A stretch of 64,000 nucleotides of DNA from Marsupella aquatica (GCA_973895155.1 OZ316899.1:7009241-7073240), one strand, 5' to 3'; shown: positions 11,825 to 41,732, counted from the first letter of the stretch. Numbers and translations are program-made. The notes: a model not told the origin generated them from the letters alone.

Positions 11825-12068
11825 ATTATGCGCAATGGGATCCGGGTTGGGGGCCAAATGTTTAGGGACCAAAGTTGGTCTGGGGGTGGCAGGTCTCCAA
11901 AAGCATATATGAGGGGAGTGGTGTCTCCCTGGGGGCTAAGGCCGAGCCGAAGTCATGAGCCGTGGCGGTCGCGACACTAAGGGAAACCGCCAAACGGAAA
12001 TGACGATATCTCCCCAATGGGAAGTCCGTTGGAGGACTTCTTGGGTGCATTGGAAAGCTCTTGAGGAC
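11825..12068 (+). mobile_element. Internal fragment of the AGT..ACT chromovirus LTR
   Basis: Matches 19964-20205 (CATTATGCGC...GGAAAGCTCTTGAGG). Confidence 0.85.
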
Positions 12069-12069
12069 C

Positions 12070-12400
12070 GTCTGTTGCCAATGGCATCAACTCCATTGGC
12101 CTTGGGCCCAAGAGGAGCTCACTCCCAAGCCCTCAAAACTCAAAGTCCATCCTAAGGTCCGGACGGCCATCCTTGAGTCCGGCCCATTTCCCCTTGACCC
12201 GACCAGCCATAGGCTAGTCCAAGTCCTTAGTGTGTGCCCCCAGCTTGGCTCCTTGCCTCGCTAGTGCCATGTCTCATTGCCCACAAGTCTCCATGCTATG
12301 TCCTCCCCGGATGGCCTATCCGGGCCTGGACCATAAGGGAGCTCGGCGTCGGAGTCAGCGACGCCGGAGCTAAGTGTTAAGGCAGTCAAGTTCCGTGACT
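12070..12400 (-). mobile_element. 5'-terminal fragment of the AGT..ACT chromovirus LTR, inverted
   Basis: Reverse complement of ~19456-19790. Begins AGTCACGGAAC at 12400. Confidence 0.85.
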
Positions 12401-18102: not shown

Positions 18103-19047
18103 GAGGGGGGACCTATGTGAAATGGTGATTATTCCTAGAAACAAGTTAAAGTATCAAAAATCATGAATTTTTTATAAAAAAATTGAACCTCTATGGCCTC
18201 TTAAGCTAGTTATTCCAAGTTATGACGACTTAGAAGATGGGACAGCCTGGATACCCATTGGCAAGACGTCAAGACAGCACCAAGATAAGGCCATTTTCAC
18301 AATTTTTGAGGACGGCCTGGACGGCCCTGAGTGCCGCCTAGACAGCTTCAAGTAAAGGACAGCCGGGACGGCAAGAGCACCAGCCTGGACGGCCCTATGT
18401 GAGGGACATCAGGGACGTCCACCTTTTTCACCAAAGACGACCTGATGCCTCCCGCAAGAAGAGCTCTTGAGTTTTCTCAGATTTTTGAAACTATGGCTAC
18501 CATAAGTTAACCATTTAGTAAGACCATTAGGGTGACCTTGCCTTCAGGTCCTAAGGCTTACTTTTGCCTTCTTAGTAACCTAGTGGAGATGGGATTGAGT
18601 TCTTTGCTTTTTATTCCATGGGATATTAATGGTGCATGGATCCATTATTGCCGATTTTCTTTGTCCACCCCAAACTGACACTTTTTGGAGCTCTATTAGA
18701 GGTTCAGCTGATGTTTGTATCACCACCATTGTTTCTGAGGTGTACCAGTTGAGCCAAGTTGGAGAGAGATTGATTTATGTTGGAGAGGACTTGATTGTCC
18801 CCTACTTTAGAGGTACCAAGAACCGGAGATCTGGTTGGAAGATTGATCAGTGCAGGAACCGAGAGTTAGCTCATTTATTCTGAGTCCTTGTACCTATCTT
18901 TCATCCGACCAAGCCCACCAGGGCTATGGTTTACTTGGTCAGCTCCATCATTGCTTCATGGACCGGCAAGAGGAGGATCAATTGGGCCCTATCTCTTTTG
19001 GAGGTGATCGCCAAGTAGGTGGCTGTCGTGACTACTACCAGTGATAT
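18103..19047 (+). mobile_element. Probable PPT (18103-18111) and start of the 3' LTR (TGTGA at 18116) of the Athila-like element
   Basis: GAGGGGGGA immediately after the integrase end, then TGTGA, the same start as the family-A LTR in element orientation. Interrupted at 19048. Confidence 0.6.
18493..19047 (+). pseudogene. Divergent homologue (family C) of the LTR-embedded PMD-like gene
   Basis: Manual translation with one frameshift and stops gives GLSSLLFIPW..IIADFL..IVSEVYQL..SGWKIDQCRNRELAHLF*VLVPIFHPTKP..INWALSLL. This is colinear with family-A GLEAFVKLPW..LLEFV..VIAEVFGL..NGFFQNTYTNPHIGEMIDFLRVTMHCNLP..DYNGYLL. Confidence 0.6.
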
Positions 19048-19455
19048 AGTGGTGGAACTCGACTACCTTAAATACATACCTCCAGTGTCGCTGACTTCAA
19101 CGCCAAGCTCCCTTATGGTCTAGGCCCAGATATATAGGCCATCCGGGGGGGACTTATTAGCATGGGAGACTTGTGGGCAATGGGAAGTGGCACTAGCAAA
19201 GGCAAGGCGCCAAGCTGGTGTTACGCACTAAGGACTTAGACTAGCTAAGGGCTGGTCGGGTCGAGGGAAAAGGGCCGGGCTCAAGGTCAACCGTTCGGAC
19301 CCCCCGACGGACTTTGAGTTCTGAGGGCTTGAGTGAGAGCTCCTCTTGGGCCCAAGGCCAATGGAGTTGACGCCATGGGTAACAGACGCTTGGGGTGCAA
19401 GTTATGGCCCGATCTGGGTTGGGCCAATCGGGGGCCCCGAGCGATGATGAGATAT

Positions 19456-20944
19456 AGTCGCGGAACTCGACTACCTTAACACTTAGCTCCAACGTCGCTG
19501 ACTCCGACGTCGAGCTCCCTTATGGTCCAGGCCCGGATAGGCCAGTCAGGGAGGACTTAGCATGGGGAGGCTTTGGGCAATGACATGTGGCACTAGCGAG
19601 GCAAGGAGCCAAGCTGGGGACACACACTAAGGACTTGTACTAGCTGATAGTTGGTCGGGTCAAGGGGAAATGGGCCGGGCTCAAGGATGGCCATCCGGAC
19701 CTCCGGATGGACTTTGAGTTTTGAGGGCTTGGGTGTGAGCTCCTCTTGGGCCCAAGGCCAATGGAGTTGACGCCTTTGGCAACGGACGCTTGGGGCGCAA
19801 GTTGTGGCCCAATCCGGGTTGGGCCGGTTGGGGGCCCCGAGCGGCGATCAGACCTGATGGCCTGGGCATGAGCACTGGCTTGGCCCGGTCACACGGGCTA
19901 AGGCACTCCGCTTGCGAATGCCTAACGAGAAAGTTATGGGCGTTGCCAGTTGGTGGCGCGCCCATTATGCGCGATAGGATCCGGGTTGGGTGCCAAATGT
20001 TTAGGGACCAAAGCTGGTCTGGGGGTGGCAGGTCTCCATAAGCATATATGAGGGGAGTGGTGTCTCCCTAGGGGCTAAGGGCGAGCCGAAGTCGTGAGCC
20101 GCGGAGGTCGCGATACTAAGAGAAACCACCAAACAAAAATGGCAATATCTTCCCAACGGGAAGTCCGTTGGAGGACTTCTTGGGTGCGTTGGAAAGCTCT
20201 TGAGGAAGGCTACGCCCTCCTGAGCTCAGCTGGGTCTGGGATACCTTGGGGTCTTGGGGTTTGCGGGTGTTAACTCGCCCACTTGCCAAATCCTGTCAAA
20301 CAGCAGCCAAACTGTGTTCAGTCTCCCAAGGGAGCTTTCGTTGGGGAGGCAAGGTCAAGTAGGTGTGGAGGTTGAGGCCCAAGAGCATTTGGCCCCTAGA
20401 TCATCAGTGAGGACAACCGAGAGTGGATTCTAGCGTCGGGGCCATTATGGTCCCGGCGTGTTGGGACAAGCTTGGGACAAGCTTTAGAACAAGCTACGCT
20501 ATTTGGGCCATGAGCATGTCCTGAGGTCAGGGCGGTCAGTTGGTGATAAATAGGTACAAGGGAGAACTCGGGCCGCGCCCAAGGAAGGAGCTGTTCTGGA
20601 CGAACAGTGGGCATGGGTTTTGGTTCCGGCTTATGGCATTGGGAGGACCTATCGCTGACCTATTTACCAACGTCTGTTGAGCTTGAGTTAGGATGCTAGA
20701 CTTGGCGAGTTCTAGATCCAGAAGGGTTACTTACCGAGATGCTTGGTTGCTTGTGTAGATAGTGAGGACCGTTGAGTAGCGATCGTGTAGGTGAGCAAGT
20801 GCGGCTTCGTATGGGAGGGGCCGCTGGTGGTGCAAGGGGCACTAGGGTGCTTGTTCGAGGTATTCTGTGGAGGCATTCGAGGAAAGGGCACTTAGGCGTG
20901 AGTGCTAGGATTGGTGAGGGCGTTGGGTGGCAAGGTCCACCACT
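19456..20944 (+). repeat. 5' LTR (AGTCGCGG...CCACCACT)
   Basis: Direct repeat of 35323-36674. Ends 2 nt before the PBS. Confidence 0.9.
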
Positions 20945-20946
20945 TG

Positions 20947-20958
20947 TGGTATCAGAGC
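20947..20958 (+). promoter_or_regulatory. PBS complementary to tRNA-iMet (TGGTATCAGAGC)
   Basis: Canonical plant iMet PBS. Also present at 51507-51518 and 58218-58229. Confidence 0.93.
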
Positions 20959-21089
20959 AATTGCTGGCATAGACACCGGGTCGGGGTTGCGCTAAGTCAG
21001 AATCCAAAAATCTTAACGGATTTTTGCGGGGACTTAGTGCTTCAACGTGCCCGACCGGTCAACTGTAGGCAGATTCGGTCATTGGGAAC

Positions 21090-22948
21090 ATGGCTAAAAA
21101 CACTCAATTAAAGAGTAGCAAACAGGCTCCCCCCACCAAGGGGAGAGCCCAGGTTCAAGATGAACAGAAGGATGACGGGTTGACTTCCCTAGATGAACGT
21201 TACGAGCAGGATGCAGAAGACGCAACGGCCGAACCGTCGACCTCTGCGGCGAACACGTCGAGTGCAGAGCGCCGTGGACTTAAAGGGAAGGAGGTAGCTG
21301 ATCCTTCAGAGGACGGGTTGGATGACGATGACTCCGATGCGGAAGGAAGCGACAACGAGGCTGAAGCCAAATCAGAGGAAGAGGGTCAGGACCTGGAAGA
21401 GGAACTGATCCCAGCCTTGAGAGGATTGAACGCGGAACCAGAGGATGATGTCCAGCCGGATGTCATCATGGATAATTTGACCAAGGAAACCCAGGGCAAT
21501 GCGGGTGATGCCTCAGCCCCAAGAGGTCATGGTGCTCGCAAGACGCGGGGGGTATTACCAAAATCCACAAGAGAACCTAAGGACAGACGGCCCGCAAAGG
21601 AAAGACAATTGGAGGACCGTCCTCATACAACTCGCAAGGGCCCAGCCGCTGACGACGGTCAGGGTCCGTTGACTCAAGACCAACAACTCATTTATGACCA
21701 GTTGGAACACAACAAGGGGGCCTATGAAGTACTTACTTAGTCTAGGTAGCCAGAGTGCGACGAGTCCCGAGGGGGGAATGGTAGTTGGACAAAGTATGTT
21801 CCAAGTGAACCAGCTACCAACTCCTCCAACTTACAATGGGGCCTATGAACAAAGTGGACAAAAATTCCTGAGTTGGCTCTCCACGATGGAGATTCATCTC
21901 CAGGTGTGCGTTGAGCGATCCACTTGGGCTATCGCAGCCGCTCCTTACCTGAAGGACTATGCCTTGACTTGGTACAAGTCATGGAAGAAGTCGCAAGATG
22001 ACTCCTCCTTGCCGTTAACTTGGGAAAACCTGGTTGAGGGACTCCGTGCTCATGTCACCACTAAGTACCCGGAGCAGCACGCTCAAAAATGTGTAACGGA
22101 GATGAGCTTCAGGGTGATATCAAAATGTTCATTACTTATTACCAGAATCAGTTGGCGTGTATCCCGGCGGGACAAGAGACCTACATACACAACTTCACAA
22201 CTTTATAGTGAAGCTCCCGCCGTTGCTCAGGGAAAAGTTACAGGAAAAGCGTCATGAGTCCAAAACGCTTTCTGACGCCTTCGACAAGGCAACTACATTG
22301 GTGAATAACCGACCTGACTTGGCGAAGGTGGGTGGCAAGGGATCCGAGGGGGAAGCTGGGAAAGCAAAAGGTCCCGAAAATAAGCGTAAGCAGTCTGAGG
22401 GGGCGGGGGCCGGTGGTTTGGACCCCTAGCCCCAGAATGGAGAAGCTAAGCGAAACCGAAAGGCTGGCAACTTCAAGAAAGGAACCTCATCGGCACAGAA
22501 AGCAAAGAAGCAGGCAACCATGGAACAGAGGCGGGCTGAAGGTTTGTGCTTCACATGTGGTGCCATGGGCCATCAAAGTAAGGATTGTTCCACGAAAGGT
22601 GGCAAGCCAAGCGGAGAGGGAGGGCAGAAGAGCATTAAGGTAAGTATCGCTCTAACCGAACCCTTAGTAGCTGACAAGGTCCCTGTAGGGGATGTTCCTG
22701 CAGGAGAGAGGGTGTTGTTGCAAGAGAAGATACCTCAAGTTAAGACAATGGATCCTGAAAAACTGATTTTTGTGAATGTCACTTCTAATGGTAATCTGGG
22801 GGTTGCTTTGGTGGATACAGGCGCGACCGCCTGCTTCATAAGTGGGCAGGCGGCAGCACGTCTTGGGGTGGACGTGCAAGAGTTGCTACAACCGTTAGTG
22901 TGCAAGTTCGCCAACGACACAAAAGATAGTGTCGAGAGTAGTACATAG
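21090..22948 (+). pseudogene. gag: Chromovirus gag + aspartic protease, frameshifted
   Basis: YLKDYALTWY and LTWENL; knuckle CFTCGAMGHQSKDC; protease ALVDTGA. Confidence 0.88.
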
Positions 22949-24204
22949 ACTTTGGGTAGAGGTCATAGGCAAACAACAAAATTTTGTTAGTTAGGAGATG
23001 TTCTACATTCTAGACGGTCTAGCCGTAGACTTCATTTTGTCAATAGGTTATCTCAGAAAGCACAATGTTACCTTGAAACCGGGGGTTGAGTGCTCCATTT
23101 TCCCAATAAGGGCAGTGAGCCCATCATTGTACACAAAGTTACCAAAAATAAATAAAGATTTCTCAAATTAAGTAAAGTGTCGTGGTTGTCTCCATGTGTA
23201 TCGGCGAAGCAATGGTGGAAAGACTTCAAGGGTGGACATGAATGTTTCTTCTTTCATCTCCACCCAACTAAGGAGGCTGCGCCGCAGCCAAAAGGCAAGT
23301 CAGCTAAGGTTGGGCCCGACTGCGGTTGAATTCCAGAAATTTTAGAGGAATTCAACAACGTGCTCTCGCAGAAGCTACCTAAAGGTTTACCCCCGCGGAG
23401 AGAAGTGGATCACCAAGTTGAGTTGGAGCCAGGTTTGGCTCCTCAGGCTAAAGCTCCTTATCGTTTGAACTTGAACAAACGAATGATGTTGAAGAACGCC
23501 TTGGAAGAGTTGATCGACCAAGGGTTCATTCGCCCTAGTAAAAGTCCTTACGGGGTGCCCGTGCTATTTGTGTCCAAAAAGGATGGTACTTTGAGATTGT
23601 GTGCAGATTACCGGGCCCTCAATAAGCAGACGGTAAAGACCAAGTACTCATTACCTCATATGGATGACCTCTTTGATTGCCTCTCCGGGGCTAAGAAGTT
23701 TTCAAGGTGGACTTGTGGTCTGGGTATTACCAGATCCGCATGGCTAAAGGAGACAAGTATAAGACCGCGATGCGCACAAGGTTTGGATCCTATGAGTTTT
23801 TGGTTATGCCGCTCGGGTTGTGTAACGCAACCGCAACATTCATGAAGATGATGAATACCATCTTCCATGACTTGTTGGACCAAGGAGTGGTCATCTTTAG
23901 TGACAACATCCTGATCTACTCAAAAACATTGGAGGAACATGAGCAGTTGCTCAGAGAAGTGTTCTCTCGCCTTGGTAAGGCTCGTCTCTTTGCTAAACCT
24001 AGCAAGTGCAAGTTTTTTTTTTTTTTTTTGTTTTGGAAATAAAAATGAAACCCGCGAAAACCCACGGGAAGGGGGGCCCAACAGGGCAACATAAGCGTGG
24101 GCAGCATAGTGTGACCCAGGTGAGGCCATAATGAGCACCTATGTGCAAAGGCACAAAGAAGTGTTCCTAGCCAACTAAAGTAGAATGCATAAACAAGTAT
24201 TGCT

Positions 24205-27200
24205 TCAACTAAAAAGCCATGCGTCTGGATGAGTAACCCACCTAAGACGTTCCTGACGGACTAATTCTTTGACTCGCAGTAATCTAGTATGTTTTCTACT
24301 GGGACCCGAGGCTTCACAGAGGCCATGCAAGGAGTCTAACATATCTGAAAGGAGTAGATTCAGATTAAACCTTCTACTGTTGACACGATTAAAAAGCTGC
24401 TCATTCCGTGCCAGCCAGAGAGTCCACAGCACGTGGTAAACCACAAAGACCCGAATGGTTCTCTCAATTTTGGTGCATCCAGTGACTTCCAAGACAGAGA
24501 ATAAATTCAAATGTCTCCAAGAAGTGGCTCCCGGAAAAATCCACCCAGCTAGCTGCCAGCACCTCTTAGCGAAGGGACATGTGAAGAAAAGATGAGGAAT
24601 TGTTTCAAGAACATTGGTGCACAGTAGGCAGCTTCCATCTCCTTTACCAATCTTTCTAGCTCGTGTTCCAGTGAATAACCCTTGAGCAGCTAATCTCCAA
24701 AGGAATAAGCGGCCTTTTAACGGTAAATCAGATGACCATAGAGCATTCCAGAAATTGTTCCATTCGAGGTCAGAAAAAGAAATGCTCCAAATCCCGTTGA
24801 GCCTGAGAGAATTAGAGCCTTTGGGTCGAATCAGCTGATACATACGTGCATTGGACAGGGTGAAGCTCTTCAGCCATTCATGTTTGTCAGACCAACACCA
24901 TTGGGCGGCACGAGCTTGGAGATCTCCAAAGCAATCCACAGTACCTTTGATTTTGTCCACGAATGCTAAACAAAGCTCTCTTGTTGCAGCGTCAGCACCA
25001 CGTATTCTTGCAATTTTAGTAGAAAAGGTTCGAACAACTGAGTCATGAGAACCATTTAAATCCGACATCGTCCTTACTCCAATCCTCCCGCACATCTTGA
25101 TAATGGAGAAAATCATGTCATCCTGTAGGTGCTGAAAACCTTCCAGGCATCTCACAACATCCTCCACGCTCCACCAGCATGCCATGCCAGAAACGCCCGG
25201 TGAGAGTATACGGTGCAGCCGAAGAGACTCCCAAGCCTTCCACAAACTACCCGTGTAAAAGAGACAGCCAAAAGAACGAGGGTAATAGAGCAATAGTCAA
25301 TCAGAGAGAGAGTATCTATTTCTCCTGATGCGCTTAGCATTCCTCCATTTTGCCAATCTCAAATTTTCCCCAAAAAGCCTAGCCCATTCAAAGACTTGCG
25401 AATCCAGAGCACGGGTGAACCATTGATAGAGTAAAGCATGAGAGTGACTACGAAAGTCCTTAAACCCAAGGCCACCGTCCACCATAGGCCGTGCCATCGT
25501 CTTCCACGCTACCAGGGGAATTTTCCGTCCACCATTCTCATTATATCCCCAAAGGAAGTTACGGCAGAGAGTCACCAAAGTCTTAGCCAAAGAGTTGGAG
25601 CTTCTGAGGAACATCATATGATAGATAGGAATAGCTTGCAATACATGCTTAACAAGAATAGTGCGTCCTGTGAAAGAAAGAAAACGGGTGGCCCAAGCAG
25701 AAAGTCGAGAACTAATCTTGTCAAGACAGAAGGTGTGGAGTTGCAAGGAAGAAAGGTCCCATCCCATAGGCGCACCAAGGTATCTTTGAATTTCCCCTTT
25801 CCCGCTGATCTTGCAACCAGTGTTAACCAGCCATTCCGGAATCTCCTCCAACGCAAGTGGAATGACAGTAGACTTACGTAAGTTGAGCCGAGCACCAGAT
25901 GCAAGTTCGTAACAAGCAATTGCTTCCGTGACCTTATTGAAATCTTCTTCAGATGCAGGAATGAACAATCCAAGATCATCTGCAAATAATCTGTAACAGA
26001 TCATGAGGGCCTCAAAGATTTGAATACCTCTCAGTCGTCCATGCAGAATCTCCTGATCCAAATAGTCCATGAGAGGTTGAGTAGCAATCGCAAATAAAAG
26101 AGGAGATAACGGGCAACCTTGACGGACACCACGGAGCAACTGGATTTCCTTCGAGAACATGCCATTCAAATGAACCTTGGAGCCCGCGCCAGTGAGTAAG
26201 GATCTCACTAAACTAATGTAGTGACTACCGAGTCCAAGCAAATGCATAGCTTCCCAGATGTAGGAGTGGCAGACTCTGTCGAAGGCCTTCTCAAAGTCCA
26301 ACATAAGAAAAAGAGAGCTTTTCTTGTTAACTCGTATCCAGTCGACAGTCAGCCAGGCAACCGAGATGTTTTCTAAAATGTGCCTGCTCGGAATGAATCC
26401 AGTTTGCTGAGGACTAATAAGCTTGTGTATAAGTGGTTTAAGGCGTAAAGCCAAGATCTTAGCCACAACCTTGTAGATGGTATTGAGCATAGTAAGAGGG
26501 CGCCAGTCCTTCAAACATCTTTTATTGGGTTTCTTCGGGATCAATTTGATCACACCTTCCTTCATGTTAGCCGAAAATTTTCCTGTTCTCAAGAAATCCA
26601 GAATCATCTCATAAATGTCTTCTTTCATAAAGTGCCAACAAGATCTGTACACTTTGGCAGTGATACCATCAGGTCCCGGTGCTTTGTCAGCCGGAAGTAA
26701 CCAAAGAGTAGAACGAATCTCCTCCATCGATGGGGGGGATTCCAGTTGCCTAATTTCAGCTGCCGTAAGCGACTTACCAGTGTTAGCAAAGAGTTTGCGT
26801 CTAGCTTCTCTAACTTCAAACAAAGTACTAAAAGCCAAATCCTCCGGCGCCTCGTAAAGAGCACAATATTGTTTTTCTACTTCTTTCAGAATACTATCCT
26901 CTTGAGTTAATATGTCGCCATTATCAAGAAGTAGTATAGACATGTTTTCTCTGAGTCTTTTAGCCTTGACCGTAGCAAAGTAGAACTTAGATGGTGCGTC
27001 TCCCTGCCCCAGCCATTTGATCCGTGAGAGTCTCCTGCCCATTTGTGCCTCTTCATGTTCAGCTATTCTTACCTGATCGTCCACAGTAGCAAAATCAGCG
27101 ATGTCTGATTCAGATAGTGAACTAATAAGGGCTACCTTAAGTGTTCGCAGACGATTCCTCAAGAGAGAGATTTCCACCTCTCGGGCAAGTGGTGCGGATT

Positions 27201-28125
27201 GTAATTCCTTGTATTTTTCCCGCAGCCTTAAACTAGCCAGATAAAAACAAAGGTGAGGATCCACCACCCGATCTTCTTGCACCTCCCATGCACCACAAAG
27301 TTTTTCCAAACAACCTTCAACTCTGAGCAGCCCCACATTGGCCTTGAAATAGGAGGACTAGTGTGAGGTCGTTCCCAACTCCACATTAGAAAGACGGAAG
27401 TGAAGAACGATAGGATCGTGATCCAAAAGTGCAGATCCTCCTTCGTGACAAAGTTCTACAACCGAATCTGTCCACCAGCTTTTTCCACTAAGGTAAAATC
27501 GGTCAAGTCTAGACTGCACCACAGACCCATTAATTTTCCGTCGCCAAGTGAAGTTTGCGCCACGAAAGCTCCGAGTAACACCAATAGCGTCCTCCAAATC
27601 AAGTCTCATTTTAAAAAACCTCCAGAATTCTGCCTCCCTTCCTCTGATCAGTGGCGATGAACCAGACGAATCATTTCTGCTTTCAGTCATATTGAAATCC
27701 CCACAGATAATCCAGTTGTCGTGAGGAAGGGATATTTTGAGTTCATGCCACAGTAGAGCACGGTCTTGAGGGAGATTAGGTGCATACACACTTACTAGAC
27801 CGAAGTTTCCCAAAGGGTGAGAAACATGCACCCACACAGCGCGGCCTTTGTCTACTACTCCAGATTGAGTGATAGAAATAGAGGGGTGAATAAGTAACAA
27901 AGTACCCCCGCATTTGTCATCTGGCTCAGCAGATAAATATTGATAGGAAGGTAGAATCAACCGAAGCGCTAGACCTAGTCTAAAACTATCAGCTTTAACC
28001 TCTTGTAAAGCTAAGGCAGTCAATGTGGTCGTGAGCGAAATAATCCAAATTTTCACCACATGTTTCCTGTTCGATTCGCACAGACCACAGACATTCCATG
28101 AAGCTATATACAATTCATTATCCAT
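24205..28125 (-). pseudogene. L1 ORF2 (EN-RT-zf-RVT), one frame with two premature stops
   Basis: ASWNV, CGDFN, SRLDRFY, DHDP; KAPGPDG, DFEKAFD, GVRQGCPLSPLLF, LFADD; CLLC..ETIPHLFFTC. ORF-track pieces 27358-28263, 25297-27336 and 24205-25293 share one frame. Confidence 0.9.
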
Positions 28126-28252
28126 TTTAGTTTTCAAAATGTTCTTCCAACTCTCGTAAGAATCAGGAAACGAGAGAGGCCATCCCAACAGAAAATGCAG
28201 ATCAGCAGATAAGCAGATCCTGAAGAAAGCCCAAAACAGATTCTCGAAGCAC

Positions 28253-31200
28253 TTATTTGGCATGGCGCCCCGGGGAAGTCGGGATGACCGAATTGGAGTT
28301 AGCAGCCGAGCGCGTCCGCATTAAAGAGTCCGAAGTAGGAGGTTCCCGAGCAGGGTAATGGAGAGAGCGTCCCTTCTTGTTGTCATCCTTTTTGTCCTTC
28401 TTCTTCTGGTCGGTAGGTGGAGTTCAAAGTTCTAGTTTTCTTGCTTGCTCCTTCTTTGACTGGCTCTTAGAAATATATTCCTCATATTCTGACATCTCTA
28501 TATCAGATCCACCCCGCAGAGAAGCCTCCTCAACATCAGTGGCAGGTTGAATATCCATGTAATCTGTGTTTGAAGTTGGCTCCACTGCAAGAGAGGAAGG
28601 GCTCGGTACAACAACTAGGGAGTCCTGCTTGTCGATTTCTGCTGCTCCATGCTTCCTCAAAGCCTGCGAATCAGATATTCTCTCTATAGCAGGCCAATCC
28701 ACTGCGCCAGGGATAACATCCTATGAACTATGATCTTCAAAGAGAGCATTGTCTCTGAGAAGCGAAGCAAAATTTCCAGTGGAACAATCAGCCAGGGGAG
28801 TCGGAAGGATGGTGGTAGAAGGAGAAGATTCTTCAATCCCCACCGGAGTGCCAATACTGGGAGAACGCACTTTATCAATCAAAACAGCAGTCGGGGACAA
28901 AGTCTGATTTTGATTCAAAGGTGACCTGGGGCTAATAACACTATCCCCTCTAGAAAGGGCAATGATATTACCAATGTTAAGGGTATTTTGTAATATAGTA
29001 CATTAGTTAGAAATAATAATAAAATTATAAATTTTGAACTTTTTCTGAGTCAAAGGTGCAGTATAGCTACCTTTTGTAGCAATTTAGATCAACTGAACAC
29101 TTTACCTAATGTCATGCTACACCGAAGACTACTTCCTGTTCTGGATCTTGAACGACAGCGGAAGTCTTTACCTTTCATCGGCATCACACTCAAGACATGG
29201 ATGTAATTCAAGAAGCTATGCAAGAGAATACCTACACAAGAGTTCAGCAACCAGACCAGACAGCACTACTCCAACAAGATTAGTTCTCCCACGACAATAG
29301 TTAAGATCAGTCGATCTCTGCAATTTTAGTTAAATAGTTAAAGTAGTTAGAAAAGTCTCATACTTTTCCAGGAGATAGCCCTTATGTAGTAGAATCTCCC
29401 CTGAAAGTATCGACCAAAACCGACATATAGTTTAGAAGATATGACATTTTTAGTTTTGTAAAAAGCGTGAGTGCGCAAAGGTGCAACGGCGCTAGTGCTC
29501 CAAAGCGCAAAGGCGCAACGGCGTCTCCAACACTTAGAAAAATTTCCGGAAAATGTATTTTTTTTATCCGACAGCACTTTTCACCGATTTTATTAAGGCA
29601 CTTAGACACCTCAGAAAAGTCTAAAATTTTGTCAGCATGTAGCATGTATATAAATCTTCCACCTAGAAAAGTTTCACCCCATTTTGACTTCTATGTTAGA
29701 AATTAAAATTCCGATAAACTCATTATTTATTAGTTTTACCACAAAAGTACAAAAACACTTTTACTCCAGTTTACACTAGGGATAACTTTTGGTTAGTTTT
29801 TCATTCCAGCAACATTCTAGTGAACCTTGAGTACTCCTGTAGCATATTTTCATATTTTTTACTTTAGTTTATGACCCTTAAGATATGAAAGGGCATGTCC
29901 TTTCATTATCTCTTTTCCCCTTTAGTTTCTGCTAGCCTATATGTAGTAGAGTTTTTGCCACTTTTTGTGTGAAGAAATTTCATGAGCGCTCAGTTGCAAG
30001 ATTGCAACTTTGTTACCTCCATTTGTAGCAAGCACTCCATTGCATATGAGTACTTAATACAAAGGAATTCTTCCCCCTTCAAGTCTAAATGAATGAGAAG
30101 TTTGGACCCTTGAAGTAAAATTATTGTGATTGTTAAATTTTTTGAGTATGTGGAAATAGATTCCTTGCTGGTAATGTTTCACATATTCCTTAGTTCTTGA
30201 TGCATAGTTTTTGGCGTGACATTGCTTGTGCACGGGATGCAAAGATTGTTACTTATCAATTACTTATGGCTTCAAATTTGATTATGATGGTGTCTCTTAT
30301 TTGTGACACAAAGTACCGATTGGATACAGAAGTGATTGATTACTAGTCTCCACTCAGTACCTTGGAAGGAAAAGTTGAGACATGTTGACGGCATTTTAGT
30401 AATCATCCTAGTATCGTAATCCTTTCCAGAAATGTTCTTGCGGATATACCACTTAAATCATATCAAATGAAGTTATGTTGAGGAGTCACCTTGGTTGTTT
30501 CCTAACTCCCTCACCATACCTCAGGATTTTTATTGTGTTTTATTAATTGTTTCCATTTTGTTAATTTTATTTTTAATGTCAAGCAGACATTTAAAACTAT
30601 GCCTTGATGAGCAACCATAGTAAAAGGCTCAACCTTTGTGTTTTTGGTTACCTTATTCATTCATAAGTGCTAAATCATAGAAAATCATTCCTTACATGTT
30701 CTTCCATGGGAACGAATACCGAGTTTTGGATCTTAAATGTTTATTTATGTCCCTAGTATGATACTACATATTTCTCTCAACCGTAGGATCAAGAGGATCG
30801 ACCCCTGGAGGGCTAGTAGCCGAAGATCCCCTAGGCGCGCCAGCACCAGCTGTCGCAAGGACCTCTTCCGGTGCCCGAGGAGAGGGACCCAAAGGGACCC
30901 CCCCAGACTCAACGTGAATAGAGTCAGAGGACCAAGGAACCACCCTGTCAGAAGCATACGTCTCGTCCGCCTCATTGTGTGTCCTATCTGGTTCAGGTTC
31001 GTCGTTTTTAATCTCCTTTGTTTCAAAGGCTTTGCACTGTCTGGCTAAATGGCCCTGTTCATTGCATCTAAAACAATGGTAGGGAATGTTCTTGAACGTG
31101 ACTGGCTGCCAGATAGTGATATCATCGGTGATCTCGATTCCAACACTTTGAGGGATCTCGTGACACGTATCCCAAAGTATACATGCACGATCATGAGGAA

Positions 31201-32368
31201 ACGAGCTTCGAACGTCTCCCTGGATATAATAAAGGAGTTTCCCAGGGGATTCCGCAATTCTTTTCCGACAACCTTCAAGAACCAGAGCACAGAAAGGGAT
31301 CTCAATCCAGACAGGTAATTTGGTGTAAGTTTCACTTCGCACATCAAAAGAAGGCTCCCACGGGAAAGTGTGGACAAATTTCCGATCCATGAAAAATGGG
31401 GCCAGCTCTAAAGTTGCATCTCTGTGTTCCGGGTGAACAAACAAAATCATGTAAAACTTCTTGCCCACAAATTTAATCTGCGAAACCGGCCAACCCATGT
31501 CGTTGATGAAGATGCCTTCAACCCAATCACGAAAGACTGGAAGCAGAGGAGCGCGGTCAGTGAAGTAGCACATCATGGTGCAATTGTAGAGCTCCAAAAC
31601 TGAAAGGGCCGCCTCATCGAATGACCACTTGAAAGTAGTGTGGAGCTTATTCGGCCAATCTTCCCTGGAATTGTTCGAGATTGTCTTCAGAATATCCAAA
31701 CATGCTTCTGAATTTTCCCCAAAAAAGTCGTTGTGTTCATGGATGGGAGCAAACGTGTTCGAGTGAGCCTGTTGACGGCTGGAAGTAGGTTCAACATTGT
31801 TTTCCAATCCCCTGTAATTCCTCGATATTCCAAGATCAAGATCTCTACGTTCACCCCAGCGCTCACATGAAGATTCAGGCTGCACAGGGTCATTCCGGCG
31901 ATCTCCAGAGACAGGGTGAGGTCCCAAGTGAGGAGCAGCATCCGCACCCGGCGGGGAAGCAAGAGGTCTCTCCTCAACGACAACAACTTCTTGAAAATCT
32001 GCATCCATTTGATCAGCCCACGAAGGACCATTTCTAGGAATGAATCGAGAAATCCTTGGAGACTGTTCAGCTGGTGGTCTTCGGTCATGCTTTGCCGAGT
32101 TGTCAAAAAGGTCGTAGGGTGCATTCTTTGGTCCTCCGCGCGCATCCTGCATAGAGAATCTACTGGGCACATTTCCTCCTATACCCCTCCTGATTTCATC
32201 TCCATCACGTGTATTACCCCCCTCAGACAAGGGTGAGCCATCATTCCTCCAAGAAGTGCCATACCGATTCCTGCCAAATCCTCTTCCAGACGAAGCAGCA
32301 CCGAGTCTACCAGGCCCTCGACCGGCATATGCACGAGTATCCATTCCAGTGCGCCAATTGTAATCCAT
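28253..32368 (-). pseudogene. L1 ORF1 (DUF4283-like + CCHC), split by a solo LTR
   Basis: LPVWIEIP and knuckle CFRCNEQGHLARQC. The frame rejoins as PTVERN|TLNIGNII after removing 1785 bp. Confidence 0.82.
28989..30768. mobile_element. AT-rich solo LTR, 1.78 kb
   Basis: TGTAATAT...ATACTACA inverted termini. Perfect TSD TATTT at 28984-28988 and 30769-30773. Confidence 0.83.
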
Positions 32369-35309
32369 AGTTCAATGTTGCTTCAGAATAGGGAGCGCAA
32401 AGGATCCAAGGACCGTAACGAATGTATGTGTTGAGACTACCAAGACCAGAGACTCCGCTACAGCATCATCCTACCTCAAATGCTCAGAAGTTAGTCTGAA
32501 TGCAATCTATCACAGCGAAAAAGGTGTCGAGAAAAAGCTCTGACGCTACTGGATCCAATGAGACCGACAACGTATTTACCAAAAATCTTAAACTTGTGTA
32601 AACCCGGAACGCAAATGTGAGATGCTCAAGCTCTCACCGCTCTCACCGCTCTTCTCCGCTCCTTCAGCTCTGTACTCAGCATCTTGTTCAGCAAGTGCAA
32701 GTTTGCGATGAACAAGATTAAGTTCCTCGGCCATACCTTTACCCCGAAGGGATTACGCCTAGTCAGGACAAACTTAAGGAGATCAAAGAATGGGAGCGCC
32801 CGTCCAATGTAAGGCAGGTTAGAGCCTTCTTAGGGTTTATGGGGTTCTATTGGAGATACATGAAAGACTATGCGAGGATCGCGAGGCCCCTAAACGAGCT
32901 AACGTTGAAAAACAAAGTGTTTGTGTGGACACAAGATTGTGAGTTAACATTCCTGGAACTTAAGCGGCTAATGATAACGCCGCTAGTTCTAAAGTTACCT
33001 GAGATGGGGAAGCCATTCGAGATTTGGATAGGCACAAGTGATTACACCATTGGCGCCTGTCTTCACCAAGATGGGCGTCCTGTGGCCTTTGAGTCATGTA
33101 AGTTGGAAAATCATTGGATCACACCGGAAAGGGAAATGTATGTTGTGATCTATGCGTTGAAGAAGTGGGAGATTTACCTTAAGAACGGTCCCAAAGTGGT
33201 AATTCACACAGATAGCTCGCCGGCAGGGTATTTCAGTTCTAAGCCAAGACTGAACCCCAAGGAAATGCGCTGGCAGATGTTCTTGGCGGATTTTGATTTC
33301 AAAGTCCGCCATGTTCCAGGGAAGACAAATATGGCAGCGGACGCATTATTGCGTAAGGACCAACATTGTGTCAATGGGATCACGATGCTCGAATCCGAGT
33401 GGCCAAAGGTTCTGGCCGCGGCTTATGGGGATGATAGGTTAGCTAAGGAATGGCAAAGCAATGGGGGTAGGCAAGGTAAGGCACGTATCGTTGGGGTTGG
33501 ATACGACGCATAATGTTCAGTTATGGCGATACAGGCAGAGGCGTGTGGACGTACCAGAGTCTCTAAGGTTAGAGGTTATGCAAAAGTACCACAACTCGCC
33601 CTAGGGAGGGCATGGAGGACAAGCCGCTACGTATCACAGCATGTCACGAGATGTGTATTGGCCGGACATGAAGCAATCGGTCCTTCAACACGTGCAAAGT
33701 TGTTACTCGTGCCAAAAGAACCAAACGGTCTATAGGGCAAAAGGAGGACTGCTACAACCCTTACCAGTAGCTGCGGCTCCATGGGAGTCTATCTCCATGG
33801 ACTTCATTGTTGGGTTACCTGAGTCCCATGGCAGTAACTCCATATTAAAAATCGTGGATCATTTTTCCAAGATGGGGTATTTCTTGCCTACTACGAAGAT
33901 GGTTTCGGCCCGAGAGGTTGCCGGTCTAGTGTTTGACAATGTCTTCCGACAATGGGGATTGCCATTGCATATCTTGTCCGATAGCGATACCAAGTTCACG
34001 GGCCATTTCTGGAAGGCATTATTCTGGTTATTCAGAACGGACCTGACTAGGGGATCAGCATATCATCATGAGACAGATGGCCAAACAGAACGGGTTAATG
34101 TTATCGTGGAGGATTACTTGCGTCACTTTGTGACGGCCAATCAAAAGGATTGGGCAAAGCATTTAACAATGGCCGAGTTTAGGTATAACTCGACCAAGCA
34201 TTCGCCGACGGGGTTTGCGCCGTTTGTGTTGGCCACAAGGAGGACGCCAAGGGCGCCCTCCTGGTTTATAGATCCGGAAGCTTGGCGGACAAAAAGCAAG
34301 GTTCCTTCTGCGGACAATTTTATTCAAGAGCGGCGCCTAGTTGTGGAAGCGGCCACCAAGGGTATGACCCTTGCCCAAAGTCGGTATAAGGAGCAAGGGG
34401 ATAAACATCGATGCCAAGTAAGCTTTGAAATTAGGGAGAGCGTCTGGTTGTAGTTGAGACTTGAGAAATACCACGGGAACATAAGTAGGAAGCTGGCTCC
34501 CAGATATGCAGGGCCCTATCGCATTATACGATGGGCCCACAAGGATAATCCGGTTTTGGTGGTGTTGGAGACACCCAAGGAAATGGGCGTGGGCAAAAGC
34601 TACCATGTTAGCTGGCTCAAGAAATTTATCAAAGACAATGATCCCAACCGGGATCAAGTCTTGCGTCCGGACACGATGCTAGTAGAGGACGGTGAGGAGT
34701 TTGAGGTGGAGGCAATTCTGGACCACCGTTACAAACACAAATTGGGAAGGCAAATCTTGGAATATTTGGTGAAGTGGGCTGGCTATGACCAGGCCGAGAG
34801 TACTTGGGAACCGGAAGAAAATTTGGGTAATGCCTCAGAGATCCTTGGAAGCTATTGTAAGCAAAGCGGCCTACCGCCGTTGTGAACTGGTACAGGCAGC
34901 TGTAGCTACCTTTGTGAGTTGTATCCTAGTTTCACTCCTCTCGGCCTCTTAAGGATAAAGTCGGATTGCGTTGGTCCTAGAGGTTGTTGGGTGGCCGATT
35001 TGCTTTTTGCGAGTGGAAGTTGATGGTGCCCACCCTACATCTGTGGGCGGGCTAGTTTGAACCAAAGGGGAGTGCCCCAAGGGGAGGACAATGGGTCCGA
35101 CGAGTTTGGAGTTAGCTTACCCATTTGGACTGGCATCCTACTTTGATAAGTGGGATAGGTTGGAAATTCCTAAGTCTGGAATGTGCATATCAACCTAGTT
35201 TGCATCAGCCTTATGGGCAAACCATTTGTTACTTCATAAAAAATTTAAGGCCTAAAGTGGTCTAGGCGTGTTGGAACGTTTCCTGAGGTCACGCAGACGT
35301 GACCATTTT

Positions 35310-35322
35310 AAAGGGGGGTGCA
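35310..35322 (+). promoter_or_regulatory. Polypurine tract AAAGGGGGG(TGCA)
   Basis: Immediately precedes the 3' LTR. Confidence 0.8.
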
Positions 35323-36674
35323 AGTCGCGGAACTCGACTACCTTAACACTTAGCTCCGGCATCGCTGACTCCGACGCCGAGCTCCCTTATGGTCCAGGCC
35401 CGGATAGGCCAGCCGGGGAGGACTTAGCATGGGGAGGCTTGTGGGCAATGAGACGTGGCACTAGCGAGGCAAGGAGCCAAGCTGGGGACACACACTAAGG
35501 ATTTGGACTAGCTGATAGCTGGTCGGGTCAAGGAGAAATGTGCCGAGCTCAAGGATGGCCATCCGAACCTCTGGATGGACTTTGAGTTTTGAGGGCTTGG
35601 GTGTGAGCTCCTCTTGGGCCCAAGGCCAATGGAGTTGACGCCATGGGCAACGGACGCTTGGGGCGCAAGATATGGCTCGATCCGGGTTGGGCCGGTCGGG
35701 GGCCCTGAGTGGCGATGAGACCTGAGGGCCTAGGCATGAGCACTGGGTTGGCCCGATCACAACAGGCTAAGGCACTCCACTTGCGGATGCCTAACGAGAA
35801 AGTTATGGGCGTTGCCAGTTGGTGGCGCGCCCATTATGCGCGATAGGATCCGGGTTGGGGGCCAAATGTTTAGGGACCAAAGCTGGTCCGGGGGTGGCAG
35901 GTCTCCATAAGCATATATGAGGGGAGTGGTGTCTCCCTGGGGCTATGGGCAAGCCGAAGTCGTGAGCCACGGTGATCGCGACACTAAGAGAAACCGTCAA
36001 ACGGAAATGGCGATATCTTCCCAATGGGAAGTCCGTTGGAGGACTTCTTGGGTGTGTTGGAAAGATCTTCAGGAGGGCTATGCCCTCCTGAGATCAGCTG
36101 GGTCTGGGGGTACCTTGGGGTCTTGGGGTTTGCGGGTGTTAACTCGCCTACTTGCCAAATCCTGCCGAACAGCAGCCAAGCCACGTTCAGTCTCCCAAGG
36201 GAACTTGCATTGGGGAGGAAAGGCCAAGTAGGTGTGGAGGTTGAGGCCCAAGAGCGTTTGGCCCCTAGACCATCAGTGAGGTGAACCGGGAGTGGATTCT
36301 AGCGTCGGGGCCATTCTGGTCCCGGTGTGTTGGGACAAGCTTGGGACAAGCTTGGGACAAGCTTTAGGACAAGCTACGCTATTTGGGCCATGAGCATGTC
36401 CTGAGGTCAGGGCGGTTAGTTGGTGATGGATAGGTACAAGGGGGAACCCGGCCGCGCCCAAGGAAGGAGTTGTTCTGAAAGAACAATGGGCGTGGGTTCT
36501 GGTTCCGGCTTATGGCATCGGGAGGACCTATTGCTGACCTATTTACCAACGTCTATTGAGCTTGAGTTAGGATGCTAGACTTGGTGAGGTGGTGGTGTCA
36601 ACACATCAGGCGTTCGGGCACCAAGGCGTGAGTGTTGGGATTGGTGAGGGCGCTGGGTGGCAAGGTCCACCACT
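35323..36674 (+). repeat. 3' LTR (AGTCGCGG...CCACCACT)
   Basis: Direct repeat of 19456-20944, followed by the TSD GATAT. Confidence 0.9.
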
Positions 36675-39600
36675 GATATGAGGGCCTAGGCATGAGCAGT
36701 GGGTCGGCCTGAGAACAATGGGCAAAGGCACTTCACTTGCAAACGCCTAACTAGGAAGTTATGGGCGTTGCTAGTTGGTGGCGCCCAGATATGCGGGATA
36801 TGGTCCAGGTTGAGGACCAAAAGTTTGGGGACCAAAGGTGGCCCGGGGGTGGCAGGTCTTGTGGTGCGTCCCATGGCTCTCAAAACCCAAGAACCCGCCC
36901 TGAACAAGCCAATTCCCACCGGTTTTGCTCTTGCCAAGGCCATTTCCACGGCTTATCGGCATGGGACGCGGCTAAAACTCCTTTACTAACTTTTTACCCA
37001 CATGTATTGGACAGATCCTTCATCGGGTCATGAGATATGCAGTTGGTCTAATCTAGGCCTCTCCTTCCTCTCTTCCCTTGGTCTCCCCTTGGGTATGTTT
37101 GGATTCCGCCGCCGGAATGATGCCCAATCGACTTGGGTAGCCGCTAAGATTCCTCTAAGCTCAACACATCAGGCTCTGCCTGCTCCTGATGACTTCATTT
37201 CCTTCTTTTCTCTCCTATAGTTGATGTGGGCAATCTTTGCACAAGTTGATGTGACACACAACTAGAAAGATGACTCATACTAAGTTATACCGTGCAACTG
37301 TCATACAAAGAGTACTTCTCATACACAAGATCTGCAAACTAAGCCAGAAGGCCAACTCTATTAAGCTCTTAGGCATGAGAAAACATGAATACACACAAGA
37401 GTCACTACATAACTAACCAAGAGCTTCTCTGACTAATTGATCCCAGCCTTGTTGGTGCACTAAAAACTTGCTTAAGAAGAAGGCCCCAAAGTCCCCGTTG
37501 CACAGGTATTTATCCTGGCAGCGCACCTACCTATTTCCTTGCCGCGTAAGCTAAATCTACCTCTAAGTGGAATCTACCTATGTATAGTGGGGCAAGAGCA
37601 CAAGTGGTGCCCTTACCAGTGGATCCGCAATCCCACTAATCTAAATGTTAGGGCCGCTTCTTGGCCCTAATCCTAATCCTAAATTTGGAGGTCAGCGCCC
37701 ACTTTGCCCACTCACGTCTCCTACCTCCACGTCCGCCCTCCCTAACAGGGATGACGCTCCTCCACCGTCATGACGCTGGTGGCTGGCCCTCAATGGACGC
37801 CCCCAATCCTTCCTCGACAGCCAATGTAGGCCTCTTGTTCTCTGACAGGTTACCCGCTCTTGACTGGGTCAACTTATCCTCGGCGTGATCGGGCCCCACT
37901 CCTATCTTGGCTTCTGCTTCTCCGGCTTCTACTCCCCAAATTGTAACAGTGGTGAGTTTGCCCCTGCAGCTTCAACAGCAGTGGTCCTCCTCATAGGCAG
38001 TGGTCCTCCTCTTAGGCAGTGGTCCTCCTCATAGGCTCATCCGACGAGTCGGGTTGTCTCATCCTCCCAAGGTTGCGGGTGATGCCAATCAATGATTGGC
38101 AACCTTGAGTCAGTGCCCGCCATGGCCTCACCCAGCTGGTCTTCTTAGTCTACCTCTAAGACTGCCACTTTGACAGCCACTACCTCGCATAAGGCTGGTG
38201 CCATGCTTCTACCGAGGAGCCACGGTGGCCTAAGGAACCGTGTTGCTCCCTTACCCCAAAGGTTTTTGCTTCTTCTTGTCCTTCCCTTCCATGGTAGTCG
38301 GTGCCTTCCCCTTGCCACTTACTTTTGGCAAGGGTGAGGGTACCTTGGCTTGTCTCTTGGTCAGGACCACGCCCTACAACCTTGTTGCCACCATCGGGGG
38401 TCCACTTGTTGCTGCCTATCGATTTAATTAACTCCTCAGACAGTTTCTTCAGCCGCTTTGTTTGGTTGTCCGCTCGCCTCTGCAAGTTCTCTAATTTCTG
38501 TGTGGCATCCTCCAACTCCTCATGGGTCTCGTCTAAATCCCCGCGAGCTTCCTCCAACTCCTTTAGGTTGTTGTCCAACTCCTTCCGTAAGGCCGCCCTC
38601 TCCTCCTGGGTTGCTCTTAGCTCTGCGTTGAGCTCATGCACGACTTCAAACTCTATCTTATTCATCTTCTCGTAGGTTTGGTTGAGCATGTCATCCTTCT
38701 TATGCATGTTGGCTTGAAAGTTGGCCGACAGGGTTTTGCAGTCCTCCTTCAACTTATCGACGCTTTTGTAGGCCTCATCCAAGTCGTCCTTTTTATTATG
38801 GAAGGCCCTATGGAATTCTTTGATCTCCTCCTTCAGTGCCGCTCCTTCCTCAGCACCTTGGTCATGGCTTTGTTGACGACCGTTAGGTGAGCAGCCTCTG
38901 CATCTTTAAGCTCTTGCTTCCACTTCTCCTTCTCCTTGAGAGCCTCGGCCAAATGCCCTTGGGTCTAGGCAACTTTATTCTTGATTAACTGGTTATCAGC
39001 CTTGGCCGTATCCAGTTGCCCCTGCATGATGTTTATCTCATGCATCCTAACCCGCAGCTTGTCTTGAGCCTGTTTGGCTGCTTTTGGATCTCCAGTCTTG
39101 GCTTCCTTCTCTCTAAGCCGCCAGATGACCTCCTCTTTCTTCATCCTCTCCAAGGCTAGTGCCTCCTCCCACCGGCTCTTCTCCAACCTCTCCCTATGGA
39201 GGAAGGGCCCCATCTCTAACTCCTTGCCAAAGATGTTGAGGGCAAGTAACCCGCACATCCTCTCGTACTCCAGGGCTCTAGAACGTGCATAGATGGAGTG
39301 GTTAGGAGATGCCAACATCTCCCAACGCAGCCTTTGTTCCCAAGTCATCCTCCAAATCTTGTCAAACGTGGGCAAGGGCCCGACTTGGTCCTCTACAAGC
39401 CGCCAAATGTCCTTTGGCCATCCTTCGCCTGGCAAATCCTTCTCCTTGGCCAAGGTTGCCCTCTCCAGATCTTGGAGTTGCTCTTGCAACTCTTGGTCAG
39501 CCTGTTTTCTCCCATCGTAATTTGGAGGAGGGACGTCTGGTGGGGGAGACTCCGGGCTTCTCTGCTGTTTTGGGTCCCCACGCACCACTCTTGGAAGTGT

Positions 39601-41732
39601 GGGAATGAAACGGCCATAGGTCCGCACCCCTGGTACCAAATGATCTGACCCGTAGCTAAAGCGTCCTTGTTATATTCCTCCATGCCCTCCCTTCCGGCCT
39701 AGAGTACTGGTGCTTGCGGATCCTCTCTTGGGCTAGCCGCAAAAGCGGCATCCTGTTGGGAACTGTGCATGTGTGCGGTTCTCTCCTCTGGCTCCCACAC
39801 CTGCCTTCCTCTCTCCTCATCATGACTACAAACCCTGGGCCCTTGTCCCTCGGGTTCTGGTCTTGAGGCTCCCACGCACATCCGCACCCCTGGCTCGTCT
39901 GCTGGCATCCTTCTCTTTGCGCCCTCGGCAAACGGATCTGCTGTGGTGGGTCTTCCGGTTCCTCCCTCCTCAACCATGCCCTATACCGGTGCCCTTATTG
40001 TCATTGCCATCTTCTCCTTCTGGAACATCTGCAGCAGGCTCTACATGGTCGGTTGCTGCATTGGCATGGATTCCGGCATTGGACTAAAGATCTGTGATAT
40101 TGTGGAGCTGCCGGGCGGTTTGGGCTTCCTTGTTGCCGGCCTTGGCTCTAGCTCCTCCTTTGGTGCCCTTGCCTGCAGGGGGAGTATGGGCGCAAAGATC
40201 TGTCTCCGGGCATACCGGCACAACAACGGCATGTGATAACCAAGCCAAGCCACACTCCCCTGACCTGCCACTTGTTGTTCTTCCTTCAAGATCTTCTTTA
40301 GTTGGGCAAGGAGGTATCCATTGTAGTCCCAGCTTGGGGCTAGGTAAACCTGTGCCTTGCCGATCTCCAGTCTTGGCAGGTTACAATGCATTGTCACTCG
40401 CAAGAAATCATTCATTTCTCCAATGTGCGGGTTGGTGCAGGTGCTTTGGAAGAAGCCATTCTTTGTTGATGGCTTGGGGAATGATCTAAACTCCCTGTCC
40501 AACAAGTTCTTTTGGGTGTCTACCTTGGCCTTGTTGCCCATTGGCAAGCCAAACACTTTGGCAATCACCTTGGGGGTGAGATAGAAGTCCCTCCCATAGA
40601 TCTTGGTTGAGTTGGACTCGTGGTCCCATGATCCCACGAATTCCAACAAGTCTGATTTTGGCACCTCCGGTTTCAGCCACGACAATCTAACAATGGCCTC
40701 CAAGCCCAACCCGGCCATGAAGCCTTGGTATTTGTGGTACGTCCCATGGCTCCCTAAACCCAAGAAACCCCTTTGCACAAGCCGATTCCCGCAAGTTTCG
40801 CTCTTGGCGAGGCCGATTTTGCGGCTTAGCGGCATGGGACGCTGCTAACTTCCTTCTACTACTATTTAACATTTAACTCACATATACTGGACAGATCCTT
40901 CATCGGGTCATGAGATACATAGCCGGCCTATTCTAGGCCTTCCCTTGTCCTCCTCTCTCAATTTCCCTTTAGGTATGTTTGGATTCCGCCGCCGGAATGA
41001 TCCCCAACTGGCTTGGGTAAGCCGCTAAGACCTCTCTCAGCTCGACACATCCAACTCTTACTACCTTGCTTACTCCCTTCTTGGTTGATGTGGGCAATCT
41101 TCAAACAAGTTAATGCGACACACAAATAGCAAAATGACTCCTTCTGACTGAGTTATATCATGCACTTGCCATACAAACAGTACTTCTCATATACAAGATC
41201 TGCGAACTAAGCCGTGAGGCCAACTCTATTCATCTCTTAGGTATGAGGAAACATGAATATACACAAGGGTCATAGTATAACTAACCGAGAGCTTCTTTAA
41301 CTACTTGATCCCAGCCCTGCTGGTGCACTAAAAACTTGCTAAGGAAGAAGGCCCGCAACTCCCCGCTGCCCAGGTACTTATCCTGGTAGTGGATCCGCCT
41401 AATTCCTTGTAGCATAAGCCTAATCTACCTATGTACAGCGAGGCAGGAGCACAAGTGTTGCTCTTACCAGTGGATCCGCAATCCCACTAAGCTAAGTGTC
41501 AGGGCCGCCTCTTGGTCCTGATCCTAATTCTAAACTTGGAGATCTGGGCCCGCCCTGCCCACTCACGCCTCCCTCCACGTCCGCCCTCCTTAAAAGGAGC
41601 GGCCCTCCACCACCGTCATGGCAACGGTGTCTGGTCCTCAATGGACGCCCCCAACACTTCCTCCGCAACCACTACCGTAGGTACGTCCTCTGACAGATTA
41701 CCTGCTCCGGACCGAGTTAACTCTCCATCGGC

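Follow-up and report, generated by a model that had tools for sequence, protein, structure and literature searches.

Here, we present an analysis of a family of long terminal repeat (LTR) retrotransposons in a stretch of DNA of 64 kb (GCA_973895155.1 OZ316899.1:7009241-7073240; referred to as the window, with positions counted from its first letter). On the + strand, positions 19456-36674 hold an element that opens with AGTCGCGG, closes with CCACCACT and is inserted into an older LTR of the same family. Its LTRs start with AGT and end with ACT; the family thus lacks the 5'-TG...CA-3' termini that are canonical in plants.

Boundaries and target site duplication of the element

The element is flanked on both sides by GATAT (Table 1). 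Intact LTRs of the family read GAGACCTGAGGG at the target site, and both flanking copies have GATAT for GACCT; that the two copies share the two letters by which they differ from intact LTRs is the pattern expected of a real target site duplication (TSD). Moreover, comparison with intact LTRs revealed that the length of the host LTR is unchanged once the insert is ignored. In a scan of 441 alternative boundary pairs (21x21), in which flank repeats of 4-8 bp were sought, we found eight repeats, which were of 4-5 bp and none of which was in a TG..CA register. The pair 19456/36674 is the only one with a 5-bp repeat inside both limits set by LTR-to-LTR homology; the other 5-bp pair, 19452/36677, clashes with the homology limits from two LTRs. 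Thus, the TSD and the restored host LTR that were proposed in the initial annotation are borne out, and positions 19456-36674 represent an AGT...ACT element. GATAT is also present at 19043-19047, directly before the host LTR at 19048, as it is before the nested element; with 54 occurrences of GATAT in the 64 kb, this recurrence amounts to a coincidence of ~1% across the junction pairs.

LTR termini in the window and in public DNA runs

Within the window, AGT is found at all five LTR starts (19048, 19456, 35323, 50036, and 12400 on the minus strand) and ACT at all four LTR ends (20944, 36674, 51504, and 58215; the last of these is part of a 99.9% duplicate of 20944 and does not count as independent). 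In the AGT/ACT register, the LTRs have a 14-bp imperfect terminal inverted repeat with 9-12 of 14 matches over the five starts; the copy at 19048 opens with 14 nt of which 12 agree with the right end in reverse complement. At the inner borders, the polypurine tract (PPT) AAAGGGGGG is followed by TGCA and then AGT, while ACT is followed by TG and then the primer binding site (PBS) TGGTATCAGAGC; the spacer CA/TG lengthens the inverted repeat to a CAAGT...ACTTG symmetry. The junction at 50036 had been counted among several independent ones that agree. It does read AGT; however, its flank GGTTGCA matches both the CpG-decayed host LTR (GGTCGCG) and the PPT side (GGGTGCA) and, therefore, cannot separate an AGT start from a TGCAAGT start, and we dropped it as independent support.

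Five public DNA runs contain part of the stretch. Outside the window, contig junctions were counted in four of them, X2-X5, which represent two organisms and two studies; run X1 (share 0.10) was left out. The figures are for the best-supported loose ends, with flanks unpaired, and minor piles elsewhere lie outside the counts. On the reference 35150-36900, which carries the PPT and TGCA on its left side, 76 (X3), 115 (X4), and 120 (X5) contigs have a loose end at 35323, directly before AGT, this position not being among the rows listed for X2. At 36674, directly after ACT, there are 35, 98, 129, and 115 loose ends in X2 to X5, i.e., in all four runs. Flank agreement at the two piles is 0.33-0.39, indicating that the flanks are unrelated. 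In a second layout, the reference 20870-21010 carries the PBS, and the piles at 20944/20945/20946 hold 106/27/14 loose ends in X5, and those at 20944/20945 hold 88/18 in X3. This spread fits with chance matching beyond 20944 as the true end, for which about 100-109/29-39/8-10 loose ends are expected in X5. With ~100 separate insertion junctions per end, these data support that AGT...ACT termini are a family-wide trait, as initially proposed from the window.

An alternative is that the true ends are canonical, with a TGCAAGT start and a CA end, and that the TSD is a coincidence. TGCA precedes AGT at 35323 and 50036, and GATAT recurs before 19048, in keeping with this alternative. However, copies starting with TGCAAGT, which the initial annotation had suggested looking for, are expected to break at 35319, while on the TGCA-carrying reference the listed pile is at 35323; similarly, right ends break after ACT. 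Also, none of the TG..CA registers has a flank repeat, and the two TSD copies share their differences from intact LTRs. Based on the junction piles and the boundary scan, we rejected the TG..CA registers and regard canonical ends as highly improbable.

The majority letters of the unpaired flanks (X2-X5; 35323, 36674, and 20944) may reflect a weak palindromic bias of the target over 11 bp, ~TGR-CAnTG-YCA, centred on the 5-bp duplication; overall agreement is ~0.35, insertions are common to several runs, and the window's own sites fit poorly. In two contigs of X4 and one of X5, the LTR end 36674 is joined to the LTR start 35323 with the letters between unread, in accordance with tandem LTRs or a circle junction. 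Searches for DNA of close relatives gave one weak locus in a metagenome scan, none in a viral scan with P0149, and none for the exact LTR-PBS pattern in prokaryote genomes.

Structure and surroundings of the element

The 5' and 3' LTRs of the element differ by a Kimura two-parameter (K2P) distance of 0.076 over 1306 columns, and the 3' LTR carries 27 bp (36589-36615) where the 5' LTR has 176 bp (20710-20885). Based on this K2P distance and the broken open reading frames (ORFs), the copy is likely old and inactive. The PBS at 20947 is presumably of the initiator tRNA-Met (tRNA-iMet) type; no tRNA genes were found in the window. The reverse transcriptase (RT) is split by a long interspersed nuclear element (LINE) that is flanked by a 12-bp TSD (24001-24012 and 32690-32701), and a Pfam search with a 122-amino-acid piece of the 5' part of RT gave no matches. 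The chromodomain matches Pfam Chromo with E 9.3e-17 and has the aromatic-cage residues F/W/Y.

Table 1. Features of the AGT...ACT element and of related LTR sequences in the window
Feature	Position	Strand	Evidence
LTR fragment starting AGTCACGG; host repeat homology from 12401	12069-12400	-	LTR homology
Host LTR piece 1, starts AGTGGTGG, cut by nested element	19048-19455	+	82% to LTR positions 1-397
TSD left copy GATAT	19451-19455	.	Sequence reading, boundary scan
5' LTR, AGT...ACT	19456-20944	+	91.7% identity to 3' LTR
2-nt spacer TG and PBS TGGTATCAGAGC	20945-20958	+	Sequence reading
gag, interrupted by frameshifts and stops	21069-22257	+	Ty3_capsid E 0.006, under Pfam cut-off; translations
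Zinc knuckle and aspartyl protease	22430-22948	+	Pfam zf-CCHC, gag-asp_proteas
RT 5' part, frameshifted, catalytic motif decayed	23330-24012	+	Translations, likeness to P0004
Nested LINE (DUF4283 ORF1, endonuclease, RT, zf-RVT), 8.7 kb, poly(A) at left	24013-32689	-	Domain search, translations
RT 3' part and RNase H	32702-33513	+	Pfam RT_RNaseH E 1e-19
Integrase zinc finger and core; D 33800, D 33986, E 34088	33605-34453	+	Domain search, alignments
His in place of usual Pro, in integrase loop RGSAYHHETDGQTE	34067-34069	+	Alignment
Integrase SH3 domain and chromodomain (chromodomain about 34700-34855)	34454-34885	+	Pfam SH3_Tf2-1, Chromo
PPT AAAGGGGGG and 4-nt spacer TGCA	35310-35322	+	Sequence reading
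3' LTR, AGT...ACT	35323-36674	+	LTR alignment, junction piles at both ends
TSD right copy GATAT	36675-36679	.	Sequence reading, boundary scan
Host LTR piece 2	36680-36859	+	81-84% to LTR positions 400-580
Host LTR piece 3, past 13-kb LINE-rich insertion flanked by CAGGTCT repeats	49952-50035	+	LTR homology
Second family copy in same host LTR, LTR 50036-51504 (AGT...ACT), PBS at 51507, truncated gag, left junction ambiguous	50036-52355	+	LTR homology

The single host LTR (19048-50035) is broken three times, i.e., by the element, by the 13-kb LINE-rich block (36860-49951), and by the second family copy at 50036. At 11824-12400, two LTR fragments abut in opposite orientation (LTR positions 508-751 on the + strand and 1-333 on the - strand), representing an inversion-deletion. 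Moreover, 19835-26730 and 57106-64000 form a 6.9-kb duplicate with eight differences that starts in mid-LTR, takes in the 3' end of the LINE, and leaves the window; it could be a recent segmental duplication, a capture by another element, or an uncollapsed haplotype. At 54170-54390, a unit of about 26 bp is repeated in tandem.

Relationships of the family

The order gag-protease-RT-RNase H-integrase between LTRs, together with the PBS, PPT, and TSD, identifies the element as Ty3/gypsy, and its best PDB match is Ty3 Gag-Pol (E 1.5e-40). The chromodomain with its F/W/Y cage at the integrase C-terminus confirms the initial annotation as a chromovirus. Among named proteins, the integrase of the leafy liverwort Calypogeia fissa is the nearest match (79% identity), followed by that of Riccia sorocarpa (43%). 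In an IQ-TREE analysis of 45 of 113 integrase rows, the window sequence groups with Calypogeia and P0004 (100/100), then with P0005 (100/97), and then with Riccia (95/87); the sister of this liverwort clade contains angiosperm chromodomain elements (95/90). FastTree over all 113 rows agrees with this grouping. Relatives with apparently intact single ORFs of 1672 amino acids exist. Protein P0131, in the cluster of a relative, is filed at NCBI as Acinetobacter baumannii on a 2-kb contig, which is probably plant contamination.

Among chromovirus clades (chromodomain classes after PMC3605345), the family resembles Galadriel and its relative in non-seed plants, the Galahad clade, as described in PMC6317226, in its tRNA-Met PBS, 5-bp TSD (4-5 bp in Galadriel), and CHD-type chromodomain with an aromatic cage as known from non-seed plants, which lies upstream of the PPT; without the LINE, the element has a size of ~8.5 kb and is inside the Galadriel range of 4.8-12.5 kb given there. 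These features are common to other clades as well, and the sister in the integrase tree is an unlabelled angiosperm clade; as judged from sequence features, the family is a candidate member of Galadriel. In contrast to the family, Galadriel elements in REXdb were chosen for TG/CA ends, and the loop is HHE here versus HPQ/HPE there. Like Tcn1 of mosses and lycophytes, the family has a non-seed host, an aromatic-cage chromodomain, and a 5-bp TSD. However, Tcn1 mostly self-primes (PMC6317226), and SM-Tcn1 is described with TG..CA ends (PMC2864245) and no PBS, while the family has iMet-type PBSs at 20947 and 51507; we, therefore, rejected membership in Tcn1. Membership in CRM was also rejected: the classical chromodomain stops about 450 bp before the PPT, whereas the CR-motif domain of CRM runs past the PPT.

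The integrase active-site loop

Ahead of the catalytic Glu, the loop has the sequence GSAYHHETDGQTE. In an ungapped alignment, its second His pairs with Pro214 of the integrase of prototype foamy virus (PFV; numbering of the chain shifted by 3) and with the Pro of the HPQ motif in Ty3. Of 251 integrase matches, 247 cover the loop; we defined the family as proteins with >=58% identity (23 proteins, versus 224 others). At the Pro214 position, His is present in 22 of 23 family proteins, and the remaining one, P0158, looks misaligned, while Pro is present in 211 of the 224 others (94%). Five residues before, Gly replaces Ser in 20 of 23 family proteins, while 216 of the 224 others have Ser. The sister protein P0005 has Ser at the Pro214 position, and Riccia keeps the Pro.

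Discussion

We consider it likely that the window samples an abundant Ty3/gypsy chromovirus family, probably of a leafy liverwort, whose AGT/ACT copies most likely go back to a swap, at both ends, of the outermost base pair alone and whose integrase would trim the cDNA and join CT-3' at both ends. In such a swap, TGT would have become AGT and ACA would have become ACT, with the penultimate C and the A before it retained. Priming by tRNA-iMet would leave ...ACT-TG at the right end, and plus-strand priming would leave CA or TGCA before AGT at the left end; by analogy with retroviral chemistry, these nucleotides would be removed by the integrase, after which both CT-3' hydroxyls would attack the target DNA 5 bp apart. 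Because the integrated ends are AGT..ACT, CT is the joined 3' end at both sides. Trimming at the left end would amount to 2 nt if RNase H cuts after GGGGGGTG and to 4 nt if it cuts after the G-run. Hence, of the earlier proposal of CT-3' joining after 2-nt trimming, the CT-3' joining is retained, as are the 2 nt at the right end (the TG before the PBS), while the left end allows 2 or 4 nt.

As a control of the register, we inspected 12 distant loci from a viral collection (30-36% identity), all with an HP loop, in a search that admitted HP or HH only. In 10 of the 12 loci, TGT comes 3-4 nt after the candidate PPT, and one locus reads TGTCACG where the window copy at 12400 has AGTCACG. This is the same register as PPT, TGCA, and AGT in the family, and it favours a one-base swap over a shift of the cut site by 2 nt. 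In such a shift, an ancestor with TG...CA ends and AG/CT overhangs (AG|TG...CA|CT) would have had its cut moved 2 nt outward so that the former overhangs are now the termini. In favour of a shift, a TG/CA pair lies 2 nt inside, as seen in ...CCAC-CA-CT at the right end and in AG-TG-GTGG at the diverged copy at 19048. However, positions 3-4 are TC rather than TG in four of the five window starts, and the ancestor would need PPT and PBS spacers of 6 nt and 4 nt, respectively, whereas the relatives have 3-4 nt before TGT. Moreover, AGT is one substitution away from TGT, as in errantiviruses (PMC5408687, PMC3601003). We regard the shift as improbable and favour the swap of the outermost base pair. 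In locus L011, at about 6180, a purine tract is followed by TAGTCAGG and a second tract by TATTGTCAGC, making the LTR start of this distant HP-loop element ambiguous.

Structural data on PFV show the scissile dinucleotide passing across Pro214, and residues 212-214 are in van der Waals contact with it (PMC3395085; reviewed in PMC6784120). Based on the alignment, we tentatively suggest that the loop His may help to accommodate or favour a CT end. If so, a plant chromovirus lineage might independently have gained errantivirus-like AGT...ACT ends through the replacement of a near-invariant Pro by His, a loop residue might help to set CA versus CT, and whole AG...CT lineages might be unannotated in liverwort genomes; this broader scenario is possible but doubtful. 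Narrowly probable, by our estimate, is that the termini are as described, that the integrase is merely tolerant of the last base, and that the His and Gly changes in the loop are unrelated lineage drift. In line with tolerance, many plant Copia families with one-sided non-CA ends, including CT, cluster with canonical ones (PMC9804982), and the Pro is also absent in 13 of the 224 other proteins, with Ser in P0005. On the other hand, both ends changed symmetrically and there is no CA-type pile among the rows listed, suggesting a preference, and the Pro is 94% conserved outside the family while its substitution is fixed inside it.

Several observations weigh against our interpretation of the ends and of the loop. 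The TSD length derives from a single insertion, the contig flanks being unpaired, and the TGCA between the G-run and AGT leaves left-end trimming at 2 or 4 nt. The 12 control PPTs were chosen by eye and lack genomic flanks, with L011 ambiguous and L013 reading TAT. Lotus has 6,203 copies of a TGCT Copia (PMC9804982), showing that joining of CT at one end is within the capacity of plant integrases, so that a special enzyme change may be unneeded. The contact in PFV is of the van der Waals type and to the base after the cut rather than the terminal base (PMC3395085), and Rous sarcoma virus, with Ser in place of the Pro, nevertheless keeps CA ends (PMC7955051), which also fits with tolerance. Finally, the link between His and AGT represents one tree branch, many of the 23 rows are near-identical or come from one species, and no termini were readable for the elements of Calypogeia, Riccia, and P0005. 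The accessible part of the published Ty3 intasome description reports no LTR-end contacts.

The AGT/AnT trinucleotide ends in place of TG/CA are shared with insect errantiviruses (gypsy, ZAM, and Idefix subgroups; PMC5408687), e.g., AGTTA..TAAYT in Zam (PMC3601003). However, errantiviruses are described as lacking GPY/F (PMC5408687) or a chromodomain and as having a specific 4-bp target, whereas the liverwort element has SH3 and chromodomains, a plant iMet PBS, a 5-bp TSD, and no env that we could see; errantivirus targets are strict 4-bp palindromes, while here a weak bias is hinted at. The resemblance is likely convergent, although the integrase tree contained no errantivirus sequence. Non-canonical termini, including a CT-3' end and an A start, are also described for the lotus TGCT Copia, a soybean TG..CT Gypsy, and Rosaceae Copia with AA..CA and TG..TT ends (PMC5659011). 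In contrast to the symmetric AG..CT ends and 1.4-kb LTRs of the liverwort Ty3/gypsy element, the plant non-TGCA elements in these sources are one-sided or T-starting (TATA being symmetric and T-starting) and nearly all short-LTR Copia. In the literature searched, with most subscription papers and Repbase outside its coverage, we found no published plant element with symmetric AG..CT ends.

Altogether, symmetric errantivirus-like ends in a plant chromovirus and a candidate integrase residue appear to be new, while the same ends were already known in insects and one-sided CT-3' ends in plants, which limits the wider interest. According to studies on plants, the reasons for which LTR elements retain TG..CA are poorly understood (bioRxiv 10.1101/137141; PMC5659011). 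A family fixed for CT-3' at both ends, with intact-looking relatives and a candidate residue, offers a direct enzyme test of end recognition. As initially predicted, motif-filtered finders would miss the family: REXdb demanded 5'TG/3'CA (PMC6317226), and the seven non-TGCA plant motifs given for LTR_retriever all start with T (bioRxiv 10.1101/137141). TG/CA-filtered reference sets and T-starting motifs would, therefore, skip an abundant repeat and skew the annotation of liverwort genomes.

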